43,585 bases of DNA from a virus (lineage: Duplodnaviria > Heunggongvirae > Uroviricota > Caudoviricetes), in the IMG/VR virus record IMGVR_UViG_2529292909_000016, positions 1-43,585 of that record; one strand, given 5' to 3'. Shown here in pieces: positions 15,001 through 18,000 of the stretch. Every line of letters begins with the position of its first letter. The first letter of the stretch is position 1. The position numbers were made by a program.

Positions 15001-18000
15001 CTTCAGGATGACAGCAAGTGCGAGATGATTGTTGGCATTGACCACTTCATGACGGCCTCGGCTAAGTATTGCGATATCCTGTTGCCCGACCTGATGCCAA
15101 CAGAGCAAGAAGACCTTATCTCTCATGAATCTGCAGGGAATATGGGCTATGTGATCCTCGCCCAACCCGCAACCTCAGCAAAATTTGAACGCAAACCCAT
15201 CTACTGGATGCTGAGTGAAGTCGCCAAACGCTTAGGACCAGACGTTTATCAAACCTTTACTGAAGGTCGCAGTCAGCATGAATGGATCAAATATCTCCAT
15301 GCGAAAACGAAGGAACGTAACCCTGAGATGCCCGACTACGAGGAGATGAAAACGACCGGGATCTTTAAGAAAAAATGCCCGGAAGAACACTACGTCGCTT
15401 TCCGCGCATTCCGTGAAGATCCACAGGCAAACCCGTTGAAAACACCTTCGGGGAAAATCGAAATTTATTCTGAACGACTGGCGAAGATTGCAGATACCTG
15501 GGAATTGAAAAAAGATGAAATTATTCATCCCCTTCCTGCGTATACCCCAGGTTTTGATGGCTGGGACGATCCCCTGCGGAAAACCTATCCACTGCAGTTA
15601 ACGGGCTTCCATTACAAAGCGCGTACCCACTCCAGCTACGGCAATATTGATGTGTTACAGCAGGCCTGCCCACAAGAGGTGTGGATCAACCCCATTGATG
15701 CTCAGGCACGCGGTATCCGTCATGGCGATACCGTGCGGGTATTTAACAATAATGGAGAAATGCTGATTGCCGCAAAAGTGACTCCGCGTATTCTGCCTGG
15801 CGTTACCGCCATCGGGCAAGGTGCGTGGCTTAAAGCGGATATGTTTGGTGACCGGGTCGATCACGGCGGCAGTATCAATATTCTGACCTCTCACCGCCCT
15901 TCACCGCTGGCAAAGGGAAACCCGTCGCACAGCAATCTTGTCCAGATCGAAAAGGTTTAAGGAGTAGCCCATGACCACACAATATGGATTTTTTATCGAT
16001 TCCAGCCGCTGTACTGGCTGTAAAACCTGCGAACTGGCGTGCAAAGATTTTAAAGTTGGTTACGTATCGTTTAAAATCAATTAGATAGCCCGTCATTTCT
16101 GCGCTCACACGTCCCAACATTGAAAAACATGCAAAGCTTTGTAAGCCGATGCAAAGCTTTGTGTGTCTCACTTTTGTCCCAATACCAATCCGAATCCACC
16201 CTTTGTCATCATTGAGAAATGGCAAGGAAGAAAAGGATGTTACTGCACGATTTGACAAATCCGCCAGAGCTATCGCATACTGATCGCACTGAACAAATAA
16301 GCGGTCTCCGCACCCGATAGCTTTGCGGCTTTTTTATGCCTGCAATTTGGCATAGTTACATCCGTACAAAGGTCGGGTGGAGAGGCGTAATACAACACCC
16401 GCAAGGGGAATATGCCCAGAGCTTCTTATTTGGCTCAGTTGACACCCGACCGCCAGCTACTAACTGGCGGTTATAAACTAAACAAATAAGGAGGTCATCA
16501 TGACCAGTCAACTCATCCCCGTATTCAACGGTTCTATCTCAAACCAAGCAGCCCTTCTATGCAATGCTCGCAATCTACACGCTTTCCTTGGGGTTGGTAA
16601 ACGCTTTGCATCGTGGATAACAGAACGTATTGCTGAATATGGTTTCGTTGAAAATCAGGACTATATGATTGCTTCCCAAATTCGGGAAGCAAAAGGTAGA
16701 GGCGGTCACAACCGCAAGGAATACCACCTCACCCTCGACACAGCCAAAGAGCTTGCGATGGTTGAACGTAACGAAAAAGGCCGCCAGATACGCCGCTACT
16801 TCATCGAGTGCGAAAAGAAACTTCGCAACATTCAGCCAGTACAAACTGAGCAGCAATTCACAGCCGAAGAAATCATCCTCCTTTGCTACATGCAGCTCTG
16901 GATGGAAAAAGCCCAGGACCTCAGCAAACACCTGTATCCCATTATGAAAGAGCTGAACTCCTCATACACGAACAAGCTGTATGACATTGCGTTTGAGACC
17001 ATCTACATGGTGACGAAGAACAGAGACGCGCTACTAAGGGAGGTAACACATCTCGACATGTCAAGTTCCGTTATCCAGCGGGCCATGCCAATGCTGAAAA
17101 GTCTGCGGGCAAGACAATTTGAATTCTGAAACCAAAGGAGCTTCGGCTCCTTTTTTCATGCCTGAAGGAAAGGAAAATGGCAGATATCATCGACAATGCC
17201 GCTGAAATCGAAGAATTGCAGCGCAATCTCTCCCTGCAAAAATACAAATCCGATAGTAATGCCCCATCTGCTACTCATTGTTGCGAGTGTGGCGATCCGA
17301 TAGATGAGCGGCGACGCCTGGCTGTTCGTGGATGCCGAGCTTGCGCCAGTTGCCAGCAGGATATTGAACTTATCAACAAACAGAGAGGTGTGAAGTGAGC
17401 ATAGACACCACTATAACGATCGATACGGCCCTCAACACAGGTCTGGCGCTTCTTGGTTATTTTTACATTATGTTCTGCGCCGGGCGGTGGCTATCGCTGT
17501 TGTTACTGAAAAAATGGAATAAATGCCGTAAGCAGGATCAACGCCAGAAGGCAATGAATGCGTTTTCCGAAGCCTTCGGGATTGACAGCATGGAGCCAGG
17601 AGGTCCAGCTCGCGTAATTAGCAGAGGTGACGTTGTAATTCTTGTATACCGGAGCGAAGAGAAAAATGAGCGAGATTAACTATCAGGTACTGCGTGAAAA
17701 GGCAGAAAAAGCAACGCGTGGTGAGTGGTCGCTCGAATATGGAGAGAACCGATTTGATGGTGATGATGCACTAATTCATCGCGAGGCTGCTGGATATATT
17801 CCCATTTGCAGAATTGAAGGAGCACATCCTGAAAGCGGTTTCGATGAAGATTTCCAAATGGAACAGCAGGCCAATGCTGAATTCATCGCCGCAGCCAATC
17901 CGGCTACCGTGCTGGCACTGCTGAATGAACGGGAAAGAAACCAGCAATACATCAAACGCCGCGACCAAGAGAACGAGGATATTGCGCTTACTGTTGGGAA

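Follow-up and report, generated by a model that had tools for sequence, protein, structure and literature searches.

The stretch of DNA analysed here (the window) comprises the 43,585 nucleotides of the IMG/VR virus record IMGVR_UViG_2529292909_000016, in which the ynfEFGH-dmsD operon is interrupted by phage DNA. Almost certainly, the seven bases TTTAAAG at 16049-16055 are the left attachment site (attL) of a lambdoid prophage that was inserted by a tyrosine integrase, through site-specific recombination, in an attachment site within ynfG (codons 27-29) and that decayed afterwards. What is left of it is a dead remnant of 29 kb, deprived of the Shiga toxin (Stx) genes stx, which cannot be a viable phage. 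Close to attL, the remnant carries the antirepressor gene ant, and a small RNA read from the sequence just upstream appears to control this neighbouring gene as a c4-like antisense regulator. The coordinates of the features are collected in Table 1.

The left prophage junction in ynfG

The window was aligned with the ynfG gene of E. coli K-12 MG1655 (locus L002). Both sequences are identical up to position 16055 and no similarity could be detected beyond it. This comparison, which had been recommended together with the initial annotation of the window, converted the breakpoint proposed there ("about 16055") into an exact one and placed the prophage end at 16055/16056. In agreement with the same annotation, which had ynfG cut off after about 28 codons and a stop nine codons further, the open reading frame (ORF) of the stub keeps 28 codons of ynfG, to which nine foreign ones and a stop are appended. 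Its translation is MTTQYGFFIDSSRCTGCKTCELACKDFK + VGYVSFKIN* (37 codons), and the only cysteine (Cys) motif that it contains is the first one of YnfG, C14xxC17xxC20xxxC24 (CxxCxxCxxxC). In genomes with the same junction, the stub is annotated at NCBI/RefSeq as an incomplete "4Fe-4S binding protein" pseudogene.

The far prophage end, the attachment sites and the integrase

The other end of the prophage lies about 1.5 kb past the end of the window. It was read on locus L006, the NCBI contig AIFY01000034.1 (assembly GCA_000249655.2), which was retrieved via the Exo protein encoded at 42605-43285. L006 is 100% identical to window positions 32605-43585 (10,981 bp) and extends 9.7 kb further; by coordinates, the window corresponds to positions 9-43593 of AIFY01000034.1. 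No finding contradicts the structural reading of the insertion, but it has to be held against it that this far end comes from outside the window, on a contig identical to its last 11 kb.

Past the end of the window, L006 contains successively a DUF4222 gene (83 amino acids, its own end falling on the last base of the window), a xis-like helix-turn-helix ORF, the integrase gene int, the core TTTAAAG, the rest of ynfG, ynfH and dmsD. The integrase (L006 11243-12406, 387 amino acids) is a tyrosine recombinase of the Pfam family PF00589 in which the motifs ATGLRRS, HDLRHTW and RRYAHL are readable, and it shares 386 of its 387 residues with the integrase of Shigella phage 75/02 Stx. The core in the right attachment site (attR) occupies L006 12459-12465, i.e. 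the window-equivalent positions 45063-45069, giving an insert of 29,014 bp from attL to attR. At attR, the 3' part of ynfG (540 nt) shows no mismatch to K-12, and the far-side YnfH and DmsD are identical to their K-12 counterparts at 285/285 and 204/205 residues, respectively.

The other prophage end, the 3' part of ynfG and a matching repeat, which the initial annotation had proposed to look for beyond the window, were thus all found on L006; the core duplication that it had envisaged is 7 bp long (TTTAAAG), and the 3' ynfG, ynfH and dmsD sequences stand on the far side of the insertion, where it had expected them. A full-length ynfG frame recoverable by a single-base correction can be dismissed, the missing 540 nt of the gene sitting 29 kb away. 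No damage is visible in the host genes that were displaced, so that ynfG would be restored if the prophage were excised precisely.

The heptamer TTTAAAG is common to the uninterrupted bacterial site of K-12 (attB, GCAAAGAT-TTTAAAG-ATCTTGGC), to attL in the window (GCAAAGAT-TTTAAAG-TTGGTTAC), to attR in loci L005 and L006 (AGCAACAAC-TTTAAAG-ATCTTGGC) and to the phage site obtained by joining the ends of the 75/02 Stx record (attP, CAAC-TTTAAAG-TTG). In attB, the core lies between inverted pentamers (AAGAT-TTTAAAG-ATCTT), in attP it sits within a perfect 14-bp palindrome, and around the attR core both L005 and L006 read CAAC-TTTAAAG-ATCTT. The layout of attB and attP is that of a lambda-type core site, and the comparison shows that recombination across the 7-bp overlap left one copy of the core at each end of the prophage.

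These features leave hardly any probability to an arrival of the phage DNA by transposition or illegitimate recombination. Nothing specific speaks for such an event, even if insertion sequence (IS) elements are found nearby in some relatives. Against it stand the identical 7-bp core at both ends, the inverted 5-bp repeats of attB and the 14-bp palindrome of attP, the cognate integrase adjoining attR, and the use of the same site in many lineages and in a laboratory lysogenisation (PMC4193171).

Occupancy of the ynfG site

Among 5426 complete E. coli genomes, a 1.4-kb query spanning the junction revealed the same ant-side junction in 82, with an identity of 94-100%. With a 180-bp probe that has the K-12 site at its centre, attB was found uninterrupted in 5236 genomes of the same set and split in about 90. 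The exact attL junction gave no match in a scan of genome contigs from species representatives. A sequencing or assembly artefact, either a chimeric contig or a one-base frameshift, has a negligible chance of being the cause of the truncation. The window does originate from a draft assembly (AIFY01000034.1), but its junction recurs in these 82 complete genomes, ynfG similarity does not resume after 16055, and the missing 540 nt are intact behind int, accompanied by the same 7-bp core.

Phages 75/02 Stx and POC-J13 integrate in ynfG (S1742 in S. flexneri) (PMC5447701; PMC4193171), and in a laboratory lysogenisation of MG1655, POC-J13 inserted in ynfG (PMC4193171). The Stx1a prophage of the avian Shiga toxin-producing E. 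coli strain RM10410 is also located within ynfG (PMC10562709). Neither the site nor the type of phage is therefore new, and the ynfG insertion is an ordinary, previously described event at a published attachment site for Stx1-type phages. For typing schemes, an occupied ynfG site is informative in that it points to a landing site for Stx phages which is blocked or was once used.

Phage identity and decay

The phage part of the window is most closely related to Shigella phage 75/02 Stx (NC_029120, Diegovirus), which covers 77% of it at 91.8% identity. The top phage matches are 75/02 Stx and POC-J13, then many Stx1 and Stx2 phages of the VT2-Sakai type (Traversvirus), with about 89-92% identity over 68-77% of the query. 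According to their taxonomy lines, the best-matching phages are all short-tailed lambdoid phages of the subfamily Sepvirinae.

The decay was mapped against 75/02 Stx, both at the nucleotide level and by tblastn with the proteins of this phage. By tblastn, no kil, cI-like repressor, cro, cII, O-like or DnaC-like gene could be detected, nor any counterpart of NinB, RusA, StxA and StxB, of the large terminase (terL), of gp49, of the major head protein, of gp51-53 or of gp64-66. Only fragments are present for gam, Q (an antiterminator gene whose N-terminal part is missing), the small terminase, the portal, gp54 and gp63. The giant polyvalent (LPD) gene is reduced from 2793 to 1706 codons and is split, gp57 is frameshifted, and the ORF at 34363-35238 results from the fusion of the C-terminus of the portal to that of the adaptor. 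Deletion or frameshift scars were located at 19067-24810, 25916-25925, 29997-30000, 34366-35341, 41156-41174, where the flanks of the stx cassette abut, and 41706-41708, a junction at which about 16 kb between mid-Q and mid-gam have been lost. When complete E. coli genomes were searched with 40400-43585, the 41706/41708 junction was found in none of them, so that this particular remnant is unrepresented there. Still readable in the window are ant with the genes adjoining it, the majority of the tail genes, lom, the lysis genes, the SASA esterase gene, bet and exo, the last two being the last complete phage genes of the window; int lies just past it.

Consequences for the ynfEFGH-dmsD operon

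The catalytic subunit genes ynfE and ynfF are intact, as the initial annotation had read them, and their products do not differ from those of K-12 (Table 1). By contrast, ynfG is divided into the 28-codon stub and a remainder of 179 codons that is 100% identical to K-12. YnfG belongs with the four-cluster subunits typified by the PsrB, FdnH and NarH chains; its N-terminal Cys group aligns with that of solved four-cluster subunits, including PsrB (2vpw_B) and FdnH (1kqf_B), and is covered by several of the alignments.

At attR, a hybrid ORF of 184 amino acids (L006 12444-12998, window-equivalent ~45048-45602) starts with GTG and reads MVSNN followed by YnfG residues 27-205. It aligns to residues 22-205 of K-12 YnfG, the first Cys group being missing, and no Shine-Dalgarno sequence was seen before its GTG. 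It was considered as a surrogate 5' end rebuilding ynfG at attR and rejected, only five phage codons preceding F27 and the first Cys motif being absent. Since the stub holds only the first Cys motif and the attR ORF lacks precisely this motif, an intact four-cluster YnfG cannot be made. The absence of this group would break the electron wire to YnfE and YnfF and deprive them of their dedicated electron-transfer partner.

The genes ynfEFGH-dmsD are described as one FNR-activated operon (PMC3688515), and therefore ynfH and dmsD would have lost their normal promoter. The insertion has moved them 29 kb away from the ynfE promoter, to a place directly 3' of int and in the same orientation, and the expression of dmsD would depend on something other than the ynfE promoter. 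As DmsD is required by both the selenate reductase and DmsABC (PMC5203670; PMC12096835), the insertion could also affect dimethyl sulfoxide respiration. From the state of these genes, the loss of YnfEFGH function that the initial annotation had predicted may reasonably be inferred. The strain should be counted as lacking an intact ynfEFGH-dmsD operon, an information of modest practical value.

Several points weigh against such a loss. The paralogous DmsB and DmsC might replace YnfG and YnfH; the 184-residue GTG ORF does exist at attR and is reported as a gene by several automatic callers, including in the annotations of other lysogens (L007, L011-L013); and no strong terminator was found between int and the hybrid ynfG (ynfG'), so that dmsD may still be expressed. 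They lead to an alternative in which the insertion is nearly silent, YnfE and YnfF using DmsB/DmsC or the 184-residue YnfG', and ynfH-dmsD being transcribed by read-through from int or from an internal promoter. The int, ynfG', ynfH and dmsD genes are indeed co-oriented, with 52 bp between int and the core, and the downstream genes are undecayed. Ynf and Dms subunits were reportedly found to be interchangeable by Lubitz and Weiner in 2003. DmsABC is paralogous to the Ynf enzyme, and the redundancy of S- and N-oxide reductases has been discussed (PMC12096835). We nevertheless consider this alternative unlikely, although it deserves some weight: YnfG' is devoid of the whole first Cys group, which ligates electron-wire clusters in this protein family, the five genes are described as a single FNR-activated operon (PMC3688515), and upstream genes are also inactivated in two other strains with the same insertion.

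In one of these strains, SCU-104 (L001 13201-18077), ynfE is split by ISEc8, an element of the IS66 family; in the other, 2012C-4502 (L076 1-561), ynfF has an internal stop. The loss of upstream genes in these ynfG lysogens would be consistent with an operon on which selection has ceased and may represent its decay, two cases being anecdotal.

The attP arm and the tandem 14-mers

The 196 bp that follow the core (16056-16251) recur without any change in 75/02 Stx and in four further lysogens of the ynfG type, and are thus invariant in all five lineages. The arm found at the same place in VT2-Sakai is unrelated and carries four GCCCCAA repeats. An arm that is shared by the ynfG-type phages and unrelated in VT2-Sakai should belong with the integrase. 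In the reconstructed attP, four copies of the motif GTCCCA, all with the same orientation, are located at -106, -95, +59 and +124 relative to the core. The sequences considered for these repeats were window 16056-16251, L006 12135-12465 and L015. The GTCCCA and GCCCCAA repeats, whose sequence tracks the integrase type, are likely candidates for arm-type integrase sites.

The same arm contains what the initial annotation had called a palindromic operator-like pair. The pair itself was confirmed: the 14-mer ATGCAAAGCTTTGT is present as two exact direct copies at +77 and +97, each holding a 10-bp palindrome, CAAAGCTTTG. The half-copy ATGCAAAG is found at -72 on the int-side arm and occurs three times in the reconstructed attP; the full palindrome GCAAAGCTTTG was not found on the int-side arm. 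Folded as RNA, the pair is predicted to form a 17-bp hairpin (-21.9 kcal/mol, z = -5.2). A weak Rfam match to mir-19 at 16125-16168 is below threshold and reflects only this hairpin.

The function suggested for the pair, that of an operator for the control of ant by a repressor, is probably not the right one. Two exact palindrome-bearing copies 20 bp apart, i.e. two helical turns, upstream of ant speak for an operator. The pair is nevertheless located about 90-120 bp upstream of the sole promoter-like site (16252-16281) and about 340 bp from ant, it is co-inherited with the ynfG-type int and absent from VT2-Sakai, which possesses the same ant module, and the related half-site lies on the int-side arm. 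An operator role is therefore improbable, and because the 14-mers lie within 196 bp that travel with the integrase type, they are more likely a part of the attP arm. As candidate functions, they could be sites for the excisionase (Xis) or for accessory proteins of attP, or they could give an RNA hairpin shielding the prophage against transcription that reads through from ynfEF, the operator being the least likely of these roles.

The ant module and its putative antisense RNA

Similarity to the VT2-Sakai-type phages starts exactly at the promoter-like site at 16252. From this position on, the sequence reads as a portable ant module made up of the promoter-like site, an upstream copy of the target (a1), a small RNA, a Shine-Dalgarno target (a2) and ant. 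The antirepressor gene with a strong ribosome-binding site described in the initial annotation corresponds to this ant gene, located behind AAGGAGG, and the complementarity described below suggests that the same ribosome-binding site is also a target of the loop of the putative antisense RNA upstream.

The small RNA folds with a minimum free energy of -35.8 kcal/mol (z = -3.2) into an outer stem that encloses two hairpins. The loop region of hairpin 2 (16419-16432) is GAGCUUCUUAUUUG and is complementary to CAAAUAAGGAGGUC (16483-16496) in the Shine-Dalgarno region of ant. The variation of this pairing was analysed in 60 IMG/VR viral loci (L016-L075) in which the 5' half of the RNA is conserved. 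Since the lengths of loop and target vary among alleles, explicit cognate and non-cognate duplexes were scored. Nine specificity classes were distinguished among the 60 loci, in which the loop, a1 and the site adjacent to the Shine-Dalgarno sequence change together; for example, the loop CUUAUUUG is associated with the target CAAAUAAG, CUUGUAAG with CUUACAAG, and CUUUGAAG with CUUCAAAG. Between a loop and the a1 and a2 of its own class, 7-8 contiguous pairs are possible, as against 2-7, mostly 2-5, with those of the other classes, and the best pairing in every row is the cognate one. No such co-variation is shown by hairpin 1, at whose apex stands a GNRA-like tetraloop (GCAA, GTAA, GAAA or GCGA).

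Between the RNA and the Shine-Dalgarno sequence of ant, a further hairpin is predicted at 16445-16475 (-15.5 kcal/mol, z = -5.0). Its stem co-varies among alleles (CCGCCAG/CTGGCGG, CCAACCAG/CTGGTTG, TCACCAG/CTGGTGA), and the small RNA might be processed or have its 3' end there. As a candidate terminator, the hairpin and T-run that follow a1 (16286-16345) were rejected, this segment folding no better than shuffled sequences (z = -0.35). A weak Rfam match to STnc40 at 17091-17156 is below threshold and reflects only the terminator of ant.

According to this arrangement, the loop of the small RNA would pair with the ribosome-binding site of ant and repress its translation, as the c4 RNA of phage P1 does. 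In EDL933, where prophage 933W ends with an equivalent RNA, this RNA was abundant, with 40,293 RNA-seq reads, and had a low ribosome coverage (PMC5331693). As the cI repressor gene is gone from the remnant, the RNA would, if it acts in this way, be the sole remaining brake on the antirepressor, which could then act on other resident lambdoid prophages.

Other features of the window

Table 1. Positions of the features described in the text (window coordinates).
Feature	Position	Strand	Remarks
ynfE, catalytic subunit gene	11050..13476	+	808/808 amino acids identical to K-12; first operon gene
ynfF, paralogous catalytic subunit gene	13534..15960	+	807/807 amino acids identical to K-12
ynfG 5' stub ORF	15971..16084	+	28 true codons (15971-16054), 9 phage-derived codons, stop
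attL core (overlap region) TTTAAAG	16049..16055		crossover inside the heptamer or at its end
Short-tailed Stx-type (Sepvirinae) prophage remnant	16056..43585, on to window-equivalent 45069		29,014 bp in all
attP-derived arm, ynfG-type integration module	16056..16251		196 bp; GTCCCA at 16111-16116 and 16176-16181
Tandem 14-mers	16129-16142, 16149-16162		two exact direct copies
Promoter-like site TTGACA-18-CATACT	16252..16281	+	consensus scan, 10/12 matches; consensus match only
Upstream target-like site a1, ACTGAACAAATAAG	16288..16301	+	duplicates the sequence adjacent to the ant Shine-Dalgarno (direct repeat D4); complementary to the RNA loop
Small RNA, Rfam RF02221 (sRNA-Xcc1)	16371..16459	+	cmscan 69.1 bits, gathering threshold 53; model 1-87 of 87
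Downstream target site a2, CAAATAAGGAGGTC	16483..16496	+	overlaps the ant Shine-Dalgarno; 14-nt complementarity to 16419-16432 (inverted repeat I4)
ant, AntA/AntB-type antirepressor gene (209 amino acids)	16500..17129	+	Pfam AntA 2.6e-26, P22_AR_C 2.1e-07; RefSeq annotation in matching genomes
bet	41823-42608	+	Pfam RecT on the identical L006 gene; tblastn with 75/02 proteins
exo	42605-43285	+	Pfam YqaJ on the identical L006 gene; tblastn with 75/02 proteins

A second, unrelated prophage end is located beside rspB, in window positions 1-5700. It contains an IS30-type transposase gene (958-1890), a gene for an exonuclease with an Rv2179c-like domain (2419-4050) and one for a tyrosine integrase with an Arm-DNA-bind_2 domain (4394-5689); in SCU-104, the region that matches positions 1-5700 is annotated as exonuclease, excisionase and integrase. 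The Rfam small RNA STnc100 matches 40953-41114 on the minus strand (76.8 bits, threshold 47), between the SASA esterase gene and the remnant of Q, near the position occupied by stxAB in toxin-carrying relatives. The tail-fibre gene at 32327-34366 (679 amino acids) shows an internal repeat with a 63-bp offset at 32775-32977, which may correspond to the Pfam collagen triple-helix repeat region of its product. No tRNA gene was detected anywhere in the window by ARAGORN.

Comparison with known systems

The remnant resembles 75/02 Stx and POC-J13 by its attachment site and core, by an identical attP arm and by synteny, 77% of the phage part of the window being matched with a nucleotide identity of about 92%. 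It differs from 75/02 Stx by its size (29 versus 61 kb) and by the absence of stxAB, of the immunity, replication and nin regions, of terL, of the major head gene and of a part of the LPD gene. The specificity allele of the RNA and ant is also different, CAAATAAG in the remnant versus CTTACAAG in 75/02.

At the other insertion sites of Stx phages (wrbA, within ompW, the btsS-mlrA site and dusA; PMC10562709), a lambdoid phage is likewise inserted by a site-specific integrase in or beside a host gene, and the prophage often decays in place, like the ynfG remnant. The target differs here in that it is the third gene of a five-gene operon, so that two downstream genes, including dmsD, the gene of the DmsA chaperone, are severed from the operon promoter.

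As in the lambda Int/attP-attB system, a 7-bp overlap lies between inverted core-type repeats, int adjoins attP, and a repeated motif is present on both arms (GTCCCA, four copies), with tandem repeats on the int-distal arm. In contrast to lambda, the binding sites are predicted here from repeats, and the arrangement of the motifs is unlike P1/P2/P'1-3.

The small RNA is best compared with c4 of phages P1 and P7, an RNA that determines heteroimmunity by occluding the ribosome-binding site on the ant transcript (PMC12197685). In both cases, the antirepressor gene is closely preceded, on its own strand, by the sequence of a small structured RNA, of which a loop is complementary to a downstream ribosome-binding site (a2) and to an upstream duplicate of it (a1). 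Two observations weigh against this assimilation: the Rfam family C4 (RF01695) has no match at E <= 1 in 16000-17200, and there is one variable loop (hairpin 2) here versus two elements (a' and b') in P1 c4. The target also differs, being the Shine-Dalgarno sequence of ant itself, whereas that of P1 c4 belongs to an upstream coupled gene (icd-ant).

In the literature searched, sRNA-Xcc1 is treated as a virulence-linked, trans-acting small RNA of Xanthomonas, and no link of this family to c4-type control, nor such an arrangement in Stx-type phages, was found there. In APSE phages, sRNA-Xcc1 stands upstream of a gene with an ORF6N domain and, in Xanthomonas integrons, upstream of symE. We tentatively propose, as a quite possible reading for which our confidence stays somewhat short of even, that the sRNA-Xcc1 family is a c4-type antisense translational repressor of the next gene downstream (ant, the ORF6N gene or symE), and that the at least nine mutually non-cognate types of its 8-nt loop and targets constitute a hidden second layer of immunity in Shiga-toxin phages. 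Such an antisense RNA would offer a concrete mechanism by which Stx phages control the ant gene that is conserved at the end of their genomes, and suggests a reinterpretation of the whole Rfam family, which makes it more interesting than the split of ynfG itself. The heteroimmunity of P1 and P7 (PMC12197685) would thereby be mirrored in the Stx-type phages, in which loop and targets have likewise diversified jointly into specificity types.

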